10,632 nucleotides of DNA, from positions 1 to 10,632 of the forward strand of contig JBHLOI010000088.1 in NCBI GenBank assembly GCA_048940645.1. Direction: 5' to 3'. The position numbers and the translations under genes are program-made. The notes under the pieces are model-generated. The model searched no databases. It was given only the letters and a program-made list of their open reading frames with translations, and was not told where the DNA came from. This DNA is from Promethearchaeota archaeon (GTDB lineage Archaea; Asgardarchaeota; Lokiarchaeia; Sigyniarchaeales; SOKP01). Shown here piece by piece: positions 1 to 7,184 of the stretch (position 1 is the stretch's first letter; each line of letters starts with the position of its first letter).

Positions 1-87
1 AATTAGAAGTATGGTATTTATAAAATTCCAAAATATAATATAAGATAATAAAAAATCATTTTTTCTTAAGATTTGATTAACAACCCA

Positions 88-1500
88 ATGGATTCTCAAG
101 AAGTTAGGAATCGTAGAAAATTTGGAATGCATTTAACATCCAAGGACATATTTTATAAGTACATCTATCCAGAGATAGATCAGGTTATAAATAACTATAT
201 TTGGGTTGATCTTTATGCTGGTGAGGGAAACTTAGTTTTACCGATTTTAGATTTTATATCTCCAAATGAGAGATATGATTTTTTCTTAAACCACATTTAT
301 TTATTTGATATACAAAAAGAAATGGTAAATAAATGTATTAAAAATGCTGAATCTTATGGAATATCCGATGTAATTGCAAAACAAAATATTCTGATTAGGG
401 ACAATCTTGAAAATTTTCCAGAATTTCTAAAACAAAAGAAATTTCCGGTTTACCATATAACTAATCCACCATATCTTTATTTGGGGTACATTAAAAAACA
501 TCCTGAAACTCAAAAACTACTTCATTATTTTAAAAAAAAAAATATTGGTTATCAAGATTTATATCAAATTGCAATGATAAATGATTTACGAAGTGGAATT
601 GAAAATCTAGTATACATCCTTCCCTCAAATTTTTTATATGGGGCTTCAGTATCCAACAAATTCAGATTAGATTTCTTGAGGTACTATAAAATTCTTAAGA
701 TGGTTATTTTTGAGACAAAGATATTTGAATTCACTGGTACAAATATATGTATTTGTTTCTTTGAAAAAAAGAAAAGACCCAAAATAGAGGATTTAAAGTT
801 TTCAGGGATGAAATTAAAAAAACAAAATAAAATAGTCCATAAAGATTATCTTTTAAAGTTTGATTATAAATTTAGAGCAGGATATGAATTTGATGAATTT
901 TTAAAGAAATACCGTAAAAAGTATCCCTTGAAAGTGAAATACTATTTACTTAAGGATAAGGTGTTAGAGAATTTAGGGAATAACGAAATTGACGTAATTG
1001 ATGCTAATCAATATAACAGTAATAAGTATAAAAAGCTAAAGCTTAAAGTTAACGAAAAATTGAAACAAAAATTAGAGTCAAACATATTATATATAAGGAC
1101 TGTTGATACAGGTTCATATCATGGAAGAGTTGGGTTAGGTATCATTAAAGCTGATTTTAATGTTAATGGAATTCTGGTATCTGGAAATACATACCGAACC
1201 CATCCAATTCAAATATTTTTAGAACCACAACTTTCATTAGAAGATCAGATTTTACTTAAGGATTATTTTAATTATATTTTAGAATTATTTAGAGAGCATC
1301 TGGATAGTGAATTTCTTACTACTTATAAGTATTCAAACGCAGATTATACAAGAAAGTATTTAGGTTTGACTCAAACGAGGAAATTAATTGAAACCTTCCC
1401 ATATAAGAATTTAACGACTAATAAAAAAGAAAGCTTGAAAAAATTCATAAAAAACAACAAGTTTAATGAAATTCTACAAATATTAACTCATTTTAGGTAA
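88..1500 (+). CDS. SAM-dependent amino (probably N6-adenine) DNA methyltransferase, gamma-type motif order, with C-terminal putative target-recognition region
   Basis: Motif X-like RRKFGMHLT, motif I WVDLYAGEG, acidic FDIQ after strand 2, catalytic motif IV ITNPPY, then YQDLY, YILPSNF and motif VIII-like IFEFTGT. ATG at 88; an in-frame TTG at 73 is an alternative start. Confidence 0.85.
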   Translation: MDSQEVRNRRKFGMHLTSKDIFYKYIYPEIDQVINNYIWVDLYAGEGNLVLPILDFISPNERYDFFLNHIYLFDIQKEMVNKCIKNAESYGISDVIAKQNILIRDNLENFPEFLKQKKFPVYHITNPPYLYLGYIKKHPETQKLLHYFKKKNIGYQDLYQIAMINDLRSGIENLVYILPSNFLYGASVSNKFRLDFLRYYKILKMVIFETKIFEFTGTNICICFFEKKKRPKIEDLKFSGMKLKKQNKIVHKDYLLKFDYKFRAGYEFDEFLKKYRKKYPLKVKYYLLKDKVLENLGNNEIDVIDANQYNSNKYKKLKLKVNEKLKQKLESNILYIRTVDTGSYHGRVGLGIIKADFNVNGILVSGNTYRTHPIQIFLEPQLSLEDQILLKDYFNYILELFREHLDSEFLTTYKYSNADYTRKYLGLTQTRKLIETFPYKNLTTNKKESLKKFIKNNKFNEILQILTHFR

Positions 1501-2374
1501 TCTTTATACTTGCAAGCAAGAAAGCTATTAACCCTAAAAATGCACCAATTTTTAGAAGTAGACTAATTTTTTTGAAGTTTTCTTTAATTAATTTAGAAGA
1601 AATCATTAATATTATCGCATATCCCACATCGACTAATCCAAAGAACATAGAAATCAAAAATAAAAAGGGATTTATAATTGGAGTAAAATATGGCAGAATA
1701 AAAAACAATATTGCAGCAAGCGAAAAAATTAGAGCAATTATTGTAGATTTTTTGATACCAATTCTAATTGCCAAGGTTTTAACGTTTTGTTCTTTATCTC
1801 CTTCAATATCTTCACACCCCTTTATAACTTCTCGTGAAAGCAGTAAAAAAAATGAAGTTAAAAAGAAGAAATAGATATAAGGAGGAATATTTGAATTGTT
1901 TAATATAGCTCCATAAATTAAACCTATAGAGAAAGAAATACTAACTATAATATTTCCAAGAAAGCCACTTTTCTTTCCCCATTTTGCATAGACCCATCCA
2001 ATAAATCCAAAGAATACAGCAAGGATGATATTTAGAAATCCTATATTAAAGAAAAAACTATGAAAGATAGATAGTCCTACTCCTATTCCATAAGTTGTTA
2101 AAAAAATTATTTTTGCTTGCTTTATAGTAATTCTCCCGCTTGGAATTGGTCTTTCGGGACGATTAATTTTGTCTATTTCAAGATCATATATGTCATTAAT
2201 AACCATCCCTGAACCAGCAACAAAAAAGTAAGTTATTACTCCAAGAATTATATTCATTATAACAAGATAAGCTGATATATTAGTTCTTGTATTTAATATG
2301 CCAATAATAACTGTTAGGCTACCCATAATATCATTTATCGGGCGGAGTATTTCAATTATATCCTTGATTTTCAT
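1493..2374 (-). CDS. Digeranylgeranylglyceryl phosphate synthase (DGGGP synthase), UbiA prenyltransferase family
   Basis: Multi-TM protein with N-terminal LRP.N, first Asp-rich motif INDIYDLEIDKINRPERPIPSG, YAKWGKKSGFLGN and second motif REVIKGCEDIEGD...VKTLA. Lies directly downstream of GGGP synthase. Confidence 0.92.
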   Translation of the reverse strand: MKIKDIIEILRPINDIMGSLTVIIGILNTRTNISAYLVIMNIILGVITYFFVAGSGMVINDIYDLEIDKINRPERPIPSGRITIKQAKIIFLTTYGIGVGLSIFHSFFFNIGFLNIILAVFFGFIGWVYAKWGKKSGFLGNIIVSISFSIGLIYGAILNNSNIPPYIYFFFLTSFFLLLSREVIKGCEDIEGDKEQNVKTLAIRIGIKKSTIIALIFSLAAILFFILPYFTPIINPFLFLISMFFGLVDVGYAIILMISSKLIKENFKKISLLLKIGAFLGLIAFLLASIKIT

Positions 2375-2397
2375 TCCAAGTATAACCTTCTTAAACT

Positions 2398-3216
2398 TTA
2401 TTTTAATGGGTAGCTCTTTTTACAGTTTTTACCTGTATCTTTTATCGCATCGATTATAGGTTTTAAGGAGGAGCCATTATCTTTTAAAATATGGTTTTCT
2501 AAATATGTACCCATTACTATGATGCCCGCTCCTGCTTCAACAAAATCTCTAGCAACATCTTTATTAGTAACTCCACCTCCCACTATGATAGGAATATTTA
2601 ACATATTAGAACAGAGGCGAATAGTTTCTGAAGGTATTCTTTCACTTCCAGAACCAGCTTCTAAATATAGTAATTTAAAGCCAATCATTTCTGCTGCTAA
2701 GGCGTAAGCTGCTGTTAATTTTGGTTTACTTCTGGGAAGTAATTTAGCTCTGCCAATCCATCCAGCAGTTCCTCCAGGTTCAATTATTAAATAAGCAGTT
2801 GAGATAGGTTCAATATCTAATACCCTAATTGTATAGGAAGCGAGTGCTTGACTTCCAATAATATTATTTGGATCTTCAGAATTTAAAAGAGACATAAACA
2901 AAATAGCATCTGCCTCTTTAGAGATATTACTTATTCCACCAGGAAATATAATTATTGGTAGGTCGATCTTTTCTCTTATTGCAATAATTGTATCATCAAC
3001 AAACCGCTGATCGAAAACAGTACTTCCTCCAATGAGAATTGCATCAGTACCTGCTTCGTGAGCATATTCTGCCATTTTAGCTGCCTTTTTCGGATGTTGT
3101 TTAACTGGATCGGGATCAATTAAAGAAAAGTGTAAAGCACCTTCTTTATTGATTTTATTAATAAGGTATTCATAGGTGCTCATCTCTAAAGATTTACTTG
3201 TCAAAATATCAGCCAT
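2398..3216 (-). CDS. Geranylgeranylglyceryl phosphate synthase (GGGP synthase), group II
   Basis: Motifs HFSLIDPD, GTDAILIGGS, IIFPG, ADAILFMSLLNS, YLIIEPGG, YLEAGSG and IVGGG. ATG at 3216 is preceded by AAGTGAA; alternative starts are GTG 3225 and ATG 3183. Confidence 0.95.
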   Translation of the reverse strand: MADILTSKSLEMSTYEYLINKINKEGALHFSLIDPDPVKQHPKKAAKMAEYAHEAGTDAILIGGSTVFDQRFVDDTIIAIREKIDLPIIIFPGGISNISKEADAILFMSLLNSEDPNNIIGSQALASYTIRVLDIEPISTAYLIIEPGGTAGWIGRAKLLPRSKPKLTAAYALAAEMIGFKLLYLEAGSGSERIPSETIRLCSNMLNIPIIVGGGVTNKDVARDFVEAGAGIIVMGTYLENHILKDNGSSLKPIIDAIKDTGKNCKKSYPLK

Positions 3217-3235
3217 ATAATTCACTTTTTATTAA

Positions 3236-4630
3236 TTAATTTACTTTTTTAGTATTTATTAACATTTTTCTAATTTTATCATAAACTTGTGTTACTTTAT
3301 TTTTCCATTCTTCAAATTCATGAATATTTTTAGGAAAGTTCCTATATAACTTTGAAATTTCTTTCATTCTAATTCTTAAATAATTTAAATCTAACAATAA
3401 ATTGGGTTGAGCAATTCCTTTGATTGCTTTATTTACCATATTTAAAAGCGATAAGTCCAAACCTCCAGTTGATGAGATTTCTAAGATTTCTTCTCCACTT
3501 AATAAATCTTTTTCTAAGCCAAAATTTAATTCAGAATTAGTCATAACTTGTAAAGTCATTCTAAGTAAATCTAATGCCGCAAATTCTGCTCCAAAGCTAG
3601 TCATAACCTTATGATTGTAATCCCATAGAGAATTAATAGTGAAATCTCCATTTTCAATGGTGTTTATAGCAGTTTCTGCCGCAAAGAAGCCAGCCCTCAT
3701 TGAAGGATCTATACCCCCACCATGCAATGGATTAACTTGGCAAGCAGCATCTCCTATAAGCATTATTCCATTAGCTGTGCAGGACCAAAGCGGCCTTCTT
3801 ACAGGCACTAGACCTCCCCCAGAAGAGATTATCTCATAATTAGATGTTAATATGAATTGATTAAAAACATTTTTCTTATAATAATCTTTTATTTCACTTT
3901 TGTATTCAGTAAAGGTGCCTAAACCTATATTTACAGAAGATTCATTTTTAGGAAAATACCAGATATACCCACCAGGAGCTTTTTCTTGATCTAAGATGAT
4001 TGAAATATACTCTGGATCTTGAACTTGAAGATTTTGCGGGGAAAATTTAACTATTTCTCTGAAACATAAAATTGTATCATCACGAGAAATTGTTTTTTCG
4101 ATTAATTCGCTACTTATTTTTTTCCTTAAAGGTGAATAAAAACCAGATGCATCGATTAGGATTTTAGATTTTAACTCTGCCTTTTCTCCATTTTTTAATT
4201 TAACTTTTACACCAGATACAGTATCTTGTTTATACAATAAGCCTAAAGCCATTGTTTTATCTAGAAATTGCTTTATTCCCGCATCTAATGCTTCATTTAG
4301 GAGTCTTTGTCCAAATTCTAGTCTATTCACAATATAACCTGCTTGTTTTGGATCAAATAGATCAATACATTTTTTTAAATTAGGTGAATATAATTTAGCC
4401 CCCTTGATATGACAAGAAAGCTCTTCTCCTTTTGGGGCATTTATTTTAAGGAATTCAAATACTTCAGTCCCTACAGCATCCCCGCATATCTTATCACCAA
4501 TTTTATCTTTTTCTTTAGTATCAAGGAGACAAACCTCTAATCCTTTTTTAGCAGCAAATCTAGCTGCTGTAGCACCTCCAGTTCCAGATCCAACAACGAT
4601 TATATCAAAAGACTTTTTAATTGGTTCCAT
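3236..4630 (-). CDS. Geranylgeranyl reductase / digeranylgeranylglycerophospholipid reductase (FAD-dependent)
   Basis: Dinucleotide-binding DIIVVGSGTGG, DKICGDAV (active-site Cys region), IDASG, GGYIWYFPK (YxWxFP), IGDAA and VNPLHGGGI. Adjacent to GGGPS and DGGGPS. ATG at 4630; TTG 4639 is an alternative start. Confidence 0.9.
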   Translation of the reverse strand: MEPIKKSFDIIVVGSGTGGATAARFAAKKGLEVCLLDTKEKDKIGDKICGDAVGTEVFEFLKINAPKGEELSCHIKGAKLYSPNLKKCIDLFDPKQAGYIVNRLEFGQRLLNEALDAGIKQFLDKTMALGLLYKQDTVSGVKVKLKNGEKAELKSKILIDASGFYSPLRKKISSELIEKTISRDDTILCFREIVKFSPQNLQVQDPEYISIILDQEKAPGGYIWYFPKNESSVNIGLGTFTEYKSEIKDYYKKNVFNQFILTSNYEIISSGGGLVPVRRPLWSCTANGIMLIGDAACQVNPLHGGGIDPSMRAGFFAAETAINTIENGDFTINSLWDYNHKVMTSFGAEFAALDLLRMTLQVMTNSELNFGLEKDLLSGEEILEISSTGGLDLSLLNMVNKAIKGIAQPNLLLDLNYLRIRMKEISKLYRNFPKNIHEFEEWKNKVTQVYDKIRKMLINTKKVN

Positions 4631-4683
4631 TATATGCAATTATTTGTTATTTGGGTTATATGAAATAAAAAGAATAATTTGAA

Positions 4684-5424
4684 TTATATTAAAGTTAATA
4701 GAAATATGATTAATGTTGTTAAAATTGGCACCGTCAAATCATCCCAGGTACTTGGAGATAAAAGTTCAATTATAGTCGCTAATGCACTAGTAATTAATGA
4801 TAATATTAAAGCATATTCGATGGAAAGATGTACTTGAGTTATTGGATTTGTAACCCCTAGTACAGTAAAAGCAATAAAGCATATGATAAAACCACTTACA
4901 AAAAAGGTTAAAGAGCCTTCTAAAGTTCTGGTAGAATTTATCCATGGTATTGTTATTTTTATCTTTCCAAATCTTTTTCCTATTAGAGAAGCAAGGGTAT
5001 CAGAAATTATCATTAACATTATCCCTGCTATTGGAAAATAAAGTTGATTAGGGAAAAAAATAACGAAAATTGTTATTAAACCTAAAATAGATAGACAATA
5101 ATGAAATGGTCCTTGGAGATAACCAACTTTTTCTTCTTCTTCTTCTCCAATTGAATCATATAATTCTTTTAATTGTTTAATTTTAGATTTTTTTGAGCTA
5201 AATAGTACCAAAACAGTAAGAGTACCCGCAATTATAACTGGCCACCATTTCCAAATAAAGTAAGGACTTGAAAACACAGATAATCCAGCAAATAAGTGTA
5301 CTGCCTTTCTAGCCTGAAATTTTGAAATCTTTTCTCTTTTTTTTAACTGAATAGGTATAAGAATAGTAGCAAATATGTAGAGATAAGTAATTAATACAAT
5401 TAGTAAATCGAATAAAATATCCAT
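4684..5424 (-). CDS. SEC59/DGK1/VTE5-family CTP-dependent membrane lipid kinase (phytol/dolichol/diacylglycerol kinase-like); substrate unknown
   Basis: Multi-TM protein with family motifs ARKAVH, GP.HY, SDTLASLIGKRFG, RTLEGS and C-terminal IIE...DDLTVP. ATG at 5424; TTG 5433 is an alternative start. Confidence 0.85.
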   Translation of the reverse strand: MDILFDLLIVLITYLYIFATILIPIQLKKREKISKFQARKAVHLFAGLSVFSSPYFIWKWWPVIIAGTLTVLVLFSSKKSKIKQLKELYDSIGEEEEEKVGYLQGPFHYCLSILGLITIFVIFFPNQLYFPIAGIMLMIISDTLASLIGKRFGKIKITIPWINSTRTLEGSLTFFVSGFIICFIAFTVLGVTNPITQVHLSIEYALILSLITSALATIIELLSPSTWDDLTVPILTTLIIFLLTLI

Positions 5425-5471
5425 TGAAATCAAGGAGATTTTTAATTATTATTTTAATTATGCCAGAAAAA

Positions 5472-5494
5472 ATTTTATTTTTTAAAAATAAAAT
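5472..5494. repeat. Perfect 11-bp inverted repeat ATTTTATTTTT-T-AAAAATAAAAT upstream of the lipid cluster; possible operator or TATA region
   Basis: Read directly from the sequence; lies 48-70 bp upstream of ATG 5424. Entirely A/T, so its function is uncertain. Confidence 0.35.
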
Positions 5495-5681
5495 CCCACT
5501 AACTATAATATTAAGTGTTACAATTATGATGAGAATAAAAACCTAACCAATGAAGGGAGAAATCAATACACTTCCTATTAAATTTTACCAATTTAACCGA
5601 TAAATATGTTTTTTTGATACTCAATAAATATTATTTTCTTTGAAATATTTTGAAAAAATATAACATTTCGAGGAATTATTA

Positions 5682-5954
5682 ATGGAAGAAGAGATCTCGG
5701 AGGAAGAATTGAAAATATTGCCTTTTATCAATTCTAATCTTGATTTAGAAGAGAGAGTATATTATTTATTACAAAGATTAACCAAAGAAGAGAAATTTAA
5801 ACTCTGTTCAGAAATTCATGGATTTGAAACAAATAAAATTAAAAGATTAAGGATTAAACATTTTAAAATGACTGATAGGGCTCATGGTATCTCGTATGAT
5901 AGTTCGGGTACTGAATTAGGAATAAATTTTCCAACAGCAAATTGTAGAGATTAA
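5682..5954 (+). pseudogene. Truncated N-terminal fragment of a glycoside hydrolase family 3 beta-glucosidase/xylosidase
   Basis: LEERVYYLLQRLTKEEK...IKRLRI...MTDRAHG...NFPTA follows the GH3 N-terminal pattern (LLxxMTLEEK, IxRLGI, DGPHG, FP) with degenerate residues. It stops after 90 aa, whereas full GH3 enzymes are several hundred residues. GAGGA SD-like site at 5670-5674. Confidence 0.75.
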
Positions 5955-5975: not shown

Positions 5976-7184
5976 ATGAGACCGTTTTCATTATTGATTA
6001 AACCTGCTTCTGCTGACTGTAATTTAAGATGTGATTATTGCTTTTATATTGATCATCTAAATGATGTTAAGCCAAAACCACGTATGCCAGAAGAAGTACT
6101 TGAGCAGTTAGTTACTACTTATATGGAAACCAATCAAAATGGCCATTACATTTTTGGTTGGCAAGGTGGAGAACCGACAATTATGGGTTTGACTTTTTTT
6201 AAAAAGGTTATTGGGCTTCAAATTAAATATGCTCCTCGAGGAGCCATCATAAGTAATGGGCTTCAAACTAACGGAACTCTTATTACTAATGAATATGCAA
6301 AATTTTTCGGTGAATATAAATTTCTTCTCGGAGTTAGCCTAGATGGTCCAGCGGATTTGCATGATTATTATAGAAAAACAATAGGCCAAAAAGCTACTCA
6401 TACATTAGTTATGCGTGGAATTGATCGTTTAAGGAAATATAATGTTGAATTCAATATTTTAACTTTAGTTAATAATTTAACAGTAACTAAAGGAAGAGAA
6501 ATATATCATTATTTAAGAGATCATGGTTTTCTCTTTCATCAATATATCCCTTGTGTTGAGTTTGATGATGATAATAAACTTTTACCATATTCCATAACTG
6601 GAGAGGATTGGGGTAGGTTTCTTTGTGAAATATTTGATGAATGGATTAAAGAGGATATCAATAATATTTCCATTCGTTTGTTTGATTCTATCCTAGGCTA
6701 CTTGATTCATAAAAGATATAATGTGTGTCATATGGGAGAAAATTGCTGCCAATATTTTGTAATCGAATATGATGGTAGCGTATATCCTTGTGATTTTTTT
6801 GTAAGAAATAATTTACTACTTGGAAATATTCTAAATAATACTTGGGAAGATTTATTAAACTCCAATAAATATCTTCAATTTGGGAACCAAAAAGCCAATT
6901 GGAATAAAGTGTGTAATTCTTGTCCATATCTATATTTATGTCATGGAGATTGTCAGAAATTCCGACCTGAGGTCATCCAAAACAAAAATGCGTTAAGTAT
7001 ACTATGTAAAGGCTGGAAAAAGTTTTATACCCATTCATTACCATATTTTAAGTCAATAGCAAAAGAAATAATGGAATCTAAGTCCTTAGGCACTCCATTA
7101 TCAGGTCAAACAAAAAAAATTGGGAGAAATGAACTCTGTCCATGTGGAAGTGGCAAAAAATATAAGAATTGCTGTATGCATTGA
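5976..7184 (+). CDS. Anaerobic sulfatase maturase-like radical SAM/SPASM enzyme with C-terminal SEC-C metal-binding motif
   Basis: IKPASADCNLRCDYCFY (CX3CX2C), WQGGEP, LQTNGTL and GVSLDG; SPASM cysteines CHMGENC...YPCDF...CNSC...CHGDC...LC; terminal GRNELCPCGSGKKYKNCC. Confidence 0.9.
   Translation: MRPFSLLIKPASADCNLRCDYCFYIDHLNDVKPKPRMPEEVLEQLVTTYMETNQNGHYIFGWQGGEPTIMGLTFFKKVIGLQIKYAPRGAIISNGLQTNGTLITNEYAKFFGEYKFLLGVSLDGPADLHDYYRKTIGQKATHTLVMRGIDRLRKYNVEFNILTLVNNLTVTKGREIYHYLRDHGFLFHQYIPCVEFDDDNKLLPYSITGEDWGRFLCEIFDEWIKEDINNISIRLFDSILGYLIHKRYNVCHMGENCCQYFVIEYDGSVYPCDFFVRNNLLLGNILNNTWEDLLNSNKYLQFGNQKANWNKVCNSCPYLYLCHGDCQKFRPEVIQNKNALSILCKGWKKFYTHSLPYFKSIAKEIMESKSLGTPLSGQTKKIGRNELCPCGSGKKYKNCCMH

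Follow-up and report, generated by a model that had tools for sequence, protein, structure and literature searches.

The stretch of DNA analyzed here (the window, 10,632 nucleotides in full) is contig 44 of a 3.83-Mb Promethearchaeota genome that is 89.6% complete and has a GC content of about 30%. On its minus strand lie four co-oriented genes, in which a gene for a predicted lipid kinase precedes three genes of ether-lipid synthesis: GGR, GGGPS and DGGGPS, in that order. The kinase-like gene (4684-5424, minus strand) starts at the ATG at 5424 and encodes a polytopic membrane protein of 246 aa, the same length as its homologues. It is followed on the same strand by GGR, of the digeranylgeranylglycerophospholipid reductase type (3236-4630, 464 aa), by GGGPS, of the PcrB family (2398-3216, 272 aa), and by a UbiA-family prenyltransferase of the DGGGP synthase type (DGGGPS; 1493-2374, 293 aa). 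Computed from ATG starts that fit homologue lengths, the intergenic gaps are 53, 19 and 23 bp; the listing of open reading frames (ORFs) and the sequence agree on order and gaps alike, as an earlier note, made from the sequence alone, had described them. The 53-bp spacer between the kinase-like gene and GGR (4631-4683, minus strand) is AT-rich and contains a T5 run and TATA-like words. On the other side of the kinase start, 257 bp of AT-rich DNA (5425-5681) extend to a divergent short ORF, and this stretch is presumed to be the promoter region of the cluster. Homologues of the kinase-like gene come from metagenome-assembled genomes (MAGs) of Promethearchaeota, Lokiarchaeota, Hodarchaeota and Hermodarchaeota; the host is therefore an Asgard archaeon, a point on which the earlier note had been conditional. 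That one Asgard order conserves the place of this kinase gene within its ether-lipid operon, as described below, is new; a literature search, incomplete in coverage, found no paper on this operon.

The three downstream genes reach family models that match the identities given in the earlier note. GGR scores 207.2 bits against TIGR02032 (cut-off 158.8), also lies above the cut-off of PF22578, and reaches 423 bits against NF041080, under the cut-off of 580. Nine proteins of the genome match the GGR-family model, four of them above the cut-off, with the operon copy scoring highest. GGGPS matches PF01884 (171.8 bits), TIGR01769 (235.8 bits; cut-off 161.6) and NF003198 (291.6 bits; cut-off 247). 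For DGGGPS, the cut-off of the UbiA family is passed (PF01040, 136.6 bits; cut-off 34.2), but the equivalog cut-offs (269-296 bits) are not, the best NCBIfam matches being PRK12884 (190.8 bits) and PRK12882 (168.4 bits). A CarS gene is found on contig 7 (75.3 and 52.8 bits). Because CarS sits there, apart from the cluster, the kinase falls outside the canonical de novo pathway, which, as the earlier note had it, needs no lipid kinase; the idea that the kinase replaces CarS (the CDP-archaeol synthase) was rejected on the same ground. The genome presumably also encodes isopentenyl phosphate kinase. No convincing candidate for glycerol-1-phosphate dehydrogenase was found in this 89.6%-complete genome: six matches to PF13685 (378-437 aa) were considered and rejected, their best NCBIfam matches being generic iron alcohol dehydrogenases. 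AraM-like candidates for this enzyme have been reported in Lokiarchaeota (PMC6737245).

The first gene of the cluster belongs to a protein family that is known already, and NCBI names these proteins as members. The source names of its homologues include dolichol kinase, phytol kinase, and diacylglycerol/polyprenol kinase family protein. An exhaustive search returned 1,286 cluster representatives at E ≤ 0.001, of which 19 were at E ≤ 1e-30. For the window protein itself, neither Pfam nor NCBIfam gives a match at E ≤ 0.01; a weak match to DUF92 (PF01940; 13.3 bits, E = 0.052) lies under the 27.5-bit gathering cut-off, and phmmer against the Protein Data Bank (PDB) found no match at E ≤ 10. Six residues, R39, H43, D142, G170, E220 and D228, are invariant in an alignment of 40 relatives. 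The first two belong to an R-K-x-x-H clamp (R39-K40-A-V-H43 in the window kinase), and both are present in all aligned Asgard orthologues. In the prenol kinase PfPolK, a charged clamp at the proposed CTP pocket is formed by Arg29, Lys30 and His33 (PMC10849223). Three further motifs are common to most of the 150 relatives listed: D..A...G...GK, R/K-S/T-x-E-G-S and D-D/N-x-x-x-P. The window kinase has the versions R-T-x-E-G-S, DD...P and SDT; in place of the last two, DN...P and GDG predominate among relatives. The assignment to the Sec59/VTE5/FOLK/PolK/Dgk1 type (COG0170) rests on these motifs and on the source names of the homologues. A search for fused forms of the kinase among proteins of 432-2000 aa found none, which is weak evidence.

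The AlphaFold2 model of the protein (mean confidence, pLDDT, 96) has about eight long helices. Its top solved fold is that of the CDP-diacylglycerol synthase TmCdsA (4q2e; Foldseek probability 1.0, Z 8.8 over 188 residues), and CarS (5guf) aligns with the C-terminal half of the model at Z 7.0 over 108 residues. A profile built from the kinase alignment also finds 4q2e in the PDB, at E = 0.0045, and the solved structures matched include no kinase of the Sec59/VTE5/Dgk1 family. That the sole solved relatives are two cytidylyltransferases, TmCdsA and ApCarS, speaks for a reading in which the protein is no kinase but a divergent cytidylyltransferase (an analogue of CdsA or CarS), or else some other transferase that depends on CTP and modifies an intermediate of ether-lipid synthesis. 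We regard this as very improbable. The catalytic-core fold is shared, but the Pfam models of these enzymes are not reached: the window kinase has no match to the CarS-like model PF01864, and none at E ≤ 10 to PF01148 (CTP_transf_1, gathering cut-off 24 bits), a model that 5 of the 40 relatives match at E ≤ 0.01. In addition, the C-terminal motifs of the window kinase differ from those of TmCdsA and ApCarS, its clamp is that of the prenol kinase PfPolK (PMC10849223), and CarS is encoded elsewhere in the genome. The best explanation is that the first gene encodes a predicted lipid kinase, a membrane protein of eight helices that belongs to the CdsA-fold superfamily. At the family level, the clamp, the motifs and the CdsA-like fold thus bear out the Sec59/VTE5/Dgk1-like kinase that had been proposed for this gene.

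The linkage of the kinase to ether-lipid genes was examined in 36 species-level loci from public genomes, the denominators that follow being the loci with enough downstream DNA. GGR lies directly after the kinase gene in 32 of 34 related loci. For GGR together with GGGPS the count is 31 of 33, and an unbroken run of the four genes occurs in 24 of 29; the pattern holds to kinase identities as low as 46%. The arrangement is therefore not due to chance. Of 31 relatives in which the spacer between kinase and GGR was measured, 30 have 11-75 bp; in the one exception, locus L043, a broken kinase frame inflates the figure. Two loci have gaps of 11 bp (L041) and 14 bp (L040), too short for a separate promoter; in the window, the four genes may form one transcript. 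The exceptional locus carries a kinase pseudogene (L043:309-1046:+) with several in-frame stops and without the catalytic motif region, next to intact GGR, GGGPS and DGGGPS genes. In one genus of a sister family of the same order (locus L075), the genes are rearranged to GGGPS-DGGGPS-kinase-GGR and are still together.

Another genus of the sister family, which includes a closed 4.4-Mb genome, has an intact kinase with 45% identity to that of the window. In this genus, no match was found to the GGGPS of the window, to its DGGGPS, or to the PcrB family model. This agrees with a published statement on the cultured strain MK-D1, which lacks GGGPS yet makes phytane and biphytane ether lipids (PMC7015854). 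In the closed genome, a gene for a 570-aa radical SAM protein (L074:7888-9600:+) is divergent from the kinase gene, across a 79-bp gap. An intact kinase in a genus without a PcrB or DGGGPS match, and ether lipids in a strain without GGGPS, are both in keeping with the reading that the protein is an archaeol or alkylglycerol kinase. Such an enzyme would be similar to Dgk1, which we take to be a member of the same family; it would convert archaeol, digeranylgeranylglycerol or geranylgeranylglycerol to archaetidic acid or geranylgeranylglyceryl phosphate, such that lipid cores from turnover or from the sediment re-enter phospholipid synthesis via CarS. The position of the gene among enzymes that make and saturate archaetidic acid favors the same reading. 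There is a model for it in yeast Dgk1, a CTP-dependent diacylglycerol kinase that forms phosphatidate; it is of the same superfamily by annotation, and returns a dephosphorylated lipid core to phosphatidate as an archaeol kinase would (PMC2459266). The likeness has limits, in that the substrate here would be a diether isoprenoid lipid and that no phosphatase partner like Pah1 was identified. Neither an archaeol phosphatase nor any other recycling gene is linked to the kinase, and no such activity is described in the literature found. We consider an archaeol kinase unlikely, for these reasons and for those that emerge from the gene contexts described below. Equally improbable, in our judgment, is the associated proposal that Lokiarchaeia, by re-phosphorylating ether cores, can arrive at archaetidic acid without passing through GGGPS and DGGGPS; if true, this bypass would explain why the sister genus keeps the kinase without a match to either of the ether-bond enzymes.

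Outside this order, the linkage disappears. It is absent from nine other Asgard families, in which the short kinase (28-36% identity) has housekeeping neighbors; in two of these families, a gene for a cis-prenyltransferase (UppS) lies 4-5 kb away. The kinase itself is nearly universal: in a profile search, 299 of 301 Asgard genomes yielded a short kinase, some of them as the sole family match, and the short kinases of the other Asgard families have the window kinase as their best match in this genome, by a wide margin. The linkage is thus specific to one lineage and does not represent a system common to archaea, and the earlier note's expectation that it would be conserved in relatives holds for the family and in part for the order, but not for the nine other Asgard families.

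This distribution bears on a third possibility, that the protein is a polyprenol or dolichol kinase of the arCOG01881 type, supplying dolichyl phosphate for N-glycosylation, and that its place beside GGR, GGGPS and DGGGPS comes from a grouping of isoprenoid genes that is peculiar to the lineage and implies no common pathway. The near-universal presence of the short kinase, the UppS genes in two families, the lack of ether-lipid linkage outside one order, and the number of GGR-family enzymes in this genome all speak for it, as does the annotation of the short Asgard kinases as dolichol kinase (PMC5898192); their catalytic domain is homologous to that of Sec59/DOLK and archaeal arCOG01881 proteins. 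We nevertheless regard this reading as doubtful. Eukaryotic Sec59/DOLK enzymes have a long N-terminal domain, and the 246-aa window kinase does not; the genome encodes seven longer paralogues of the kinase superfamily, with an N-terminal extension like that of eukaryotic dolichol kinases, that could serve glycosylation (PMC11542857). The decay of the kinase in L043 would be surprising if the step were essential, the rearrangement in L075 did not break up the cluster, and linkage to GGGPS and DGGGPS would be unexpected for an enzyme of glycosylation.

The long paralogues fall into two architectures. Five of them (301-392 aa; L094:778-1860:+, L097:1495-2526:-, L097:2590-3495:-, L098:799-1977:+ and L099:1495-2577:-) have the catalytic domain at the C-terminus, and a gene for a HAD-family phosphatase follows one of the five. 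The other two, of 402 and 406 aa, are encoded in tandem on contig 88 of the same genome (L095:955-2163:+ and L095:2304-3524:+). They combine an N-terminal glycerol-3-phosphate acyltransferase of the PlsY type (PF02660, 115 and 122 bits) with a C-terminal Sec59/CdsA-like domain that carries D...G...G and DN..P motifs. PlsY in Loki- and Thorarchaeota has been treated before (PMC6737245), and no remark on its fusion with a Sec59/CdsA-like domain was seen in that paper.

The relationships among the short kinases were studied with a tree of 91 sequences. It places those of the window's order inside one clade (support 1.00), marked by DD...P instead of DN...P and by [S/A]D[T/P] instead of GDG, which we call the DD subclade. 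The sister group of this clade (0.95) consists of the short kinases found without linkage in other Asgard families. The operon-linked kinases are therefore a separate clade with altered motifs, which counts against a general dolichol kinase. The DD clade also takes in sequences from quite different organisms, on unrelated contigs of higher GC content, and in three of these a prenyltransferase gene is adjacent. First, the kinase P0126 (43% identity) has a GGGPS gene 12 bp downstream, the product of which is 37% identical to that of the window and above the cut-off of TIGR01769; the contig, with 59% GC and genes for Mur ligase, MMPL and peptidase M23, is judged to be bacterial on these features. 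Second, P0130 has a UbiA-family gene 8 bp downstream, with homogentisate phytyltransferase (HPT) as its best NCBIfam match. Third, the gene for P0141, on a contig of 65% GC, overlaps an upstream UbiA gene by 4 bp; this UbiA protein gave no tblastn match to the DGGGPS of the window. The other members of the clade that were inspected have no lipid-gene neighbor. Two genes downstream of the bacterial kinase-GGGPS pair is a gene for a 571-aa FAD_binding_4/FAD-oxidase_C protein (L117:12568-14283:+), of a family shared with alkyl-dihydroxyacetone phosphate synthases but closest to GlcD among the NCBIfam models. That a DD subclade can be recognized from its sequence markers is new, as is the independent pairing of its members with GGGPS or UbiA elsewhere, in at least one bacterial case.

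More distant relatives show fusions of the same kind. The protein P0190 (473 aa) is fused to a DUF92/VTE6-like domain (199 bits), and P0223 and P0234 (552 and 563 aa) have a C-terminal UbiA-type prenyltransferase domain that is PRK13592-like (150 bits). DUF92 is the family of VTE6, the plant phytyl-phosphate kinase, and its fusion to a Sec59-like domain is known in Methanosarcina (PMC5898192).

These contexts weigh on the choice of substrate. The pairing of a bacterial kinase with GGGPS fits re-phosphorylation of a prenylglycerol as well, but two DD-clade members are coupled to UbiA, one of them HPT-like, and a glycerolipid substrate would make no sense there; the contexts point to prenyl donors and not to glycerolipids, as they would for a Dgk1-like enzyme. 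The bacterial members that adjoin GGGPS or UbiA also speak against a dolichol kinase, since bacteria are, to our knowledge, not known to make dolichol. GGGPS, DGGGPS and HPT-like UbiA enzymes differ in their acceptors and have an allylic prenyl diphosphate donor in common. Because the partners of the kinase share this donor and not an acceptor, we tentatively favor a kinase that phosphorylates free C20 isoprenoid alcohols (geranylgeraniol and/or phytol) and so supplies prenyl donors. The earlier note had proposed two substrate options, re-phosphorylation of archaeol and salvage of prenols; the second is preferred over the first since the kinase adjoins GGGPS on a bacterial contig and UbiA on two others.

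In the mechanism that we envisage, the candidate kinase would phosphorylate geranylgeraniol and/or phytol to the prenyl phosphate, with CTP as the probable phosphate donor by analogy with characterized relatives. A second phosphorylation, by a separate kinase, would let the prenyl phosphate rejoin the pool of geranylgeranyl diphosphate or phytyl diphosphate, on which the GGGPS and DGGGPS of the cluster would draw, and GGR would saturate the chains. The kinase activity, its nucleotide, its substrate, the second kinase and co-transcription are what we infer. Two further observations fit an accessory salvage step: the kinase stands outside the canonical pathway, and it has decayed in L043 beside intact GGR, GGGPS and DGGGPS genes.

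Several points weigh against a prenol kinase. The main weakness is the second phosphorylation: no second kinase was found, and DUF92, the VTE6 family, has no match anywhere in this 89.6%-complete genome, although the seven long paralogues and the presumed isopentenyl phosphate kinase may be candidates for the step. We know of no case in which a prenyl monophosphate is the donor for GGGPS or DGGGPS. Within the cluster, the kinase adjoins GGR and not a prenyltransferase, and of the roughly 10 non-Lokiarchaeal contexts inspected in the DD clade, only 3 have a prenyltransferase as neighbor. The sister genus without a PcrB or DGGGPS match keeps the kinase, which argues for a role independent of the operon partners. 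Finally, the housekeeping neighbors in other Asgard families, with UppS 4-5 kb away, hint at a polyprenol or dolichol role in the wider family.

The phosphorylation of C20 prenols has precedents in known systems. VTE5 and FOLK of plants and PfPolK of Plasmodium are CTP-dependent kinases of phytol, farnesol and geranylgeraniol that resemble the window kinase in size, in having about eight transmembrane helices, and in the R-K-x-x-H clamp, and sources name some relatives of the window kinase "phytol kinase". The comparison is one of motif and architecture only, and, unlike these enzymes, the window kinase is encoded in an archaeal ether-lipid operon. VTE5 works with VTE2 much as P0130 is paired with an HPT-like UbiA enzyme, and some distant relatives of the window kinase are fused to DUF92, the VTE6 family; the window's genome differs from the VTE5 system in that no VTE6-like partner was found. 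There is a parallel in archaea as well. Geranylgeraniol kinase activity in Sulfolobus acidocaldarius, in which an archaeal prenol kinase acts before a separate kinase of geranylgeranyl phosphate, is the reaction proposed here; it is attributed to Ohnuma et al. 1996, as cited in two later papers (PMC9385802, PMC10849223). The literature found names no gene for this Sulfolobus activity.

The genes that flank the cluster lie on the plus strand. An ORF of 475 aa (73-1500, plus strand), with a weak N6-DNA-methylase match (PF02384, 22.9 bits), is convergent with DGGGPS, the stop regions of the two overlapping by 8 bp; it is kept at the same position in most relatives, with 58-89% identity. On the other side, the short divergent ORF of 90 aa (5682-5954, plus strand) matches only the N-terminus of a GH3 beta-xylosidase model (NF041776, E = 1e-6); relatives keep it, likewise as a short ORF. 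Next comes a gene for a radical SAM/SPASM protein of the anaerobic sulfatase-maturase type (5976-7184, plus strand; TIGR03942, 406 bits), which has a SEC-C zinc motif at its end.

According to sediment studies, external archaeal lipids can be recycled by benthic archaea for their own lipid synthesis (PMC9123169, citing Takano et al. 2010). In the literature found, neither a prenol kinase nor any step of lipid recycling has a named gene in archaea. The kinase described here is a concrete, expressible gene candidate for archaeal isoprenoid recycling, in the commonest Asgard lineage of sediments. If its substrate is archaeol, archaea would have in it their counterpart of eukaryotic Dgk1, and through the bypass, Asgard archaea with no match to GGGPS or DGGGPS could build membranes from scavenged lipid cores. 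If phytol or geranylgeraniol is the substrate, archaea short of energy could draw on relic isoprenoids, or on those derived from chlorophyll, for their membranes, and recycling would have to be taken into account wherever archaeal lipid biomarkers are interpreted by their isotopes.

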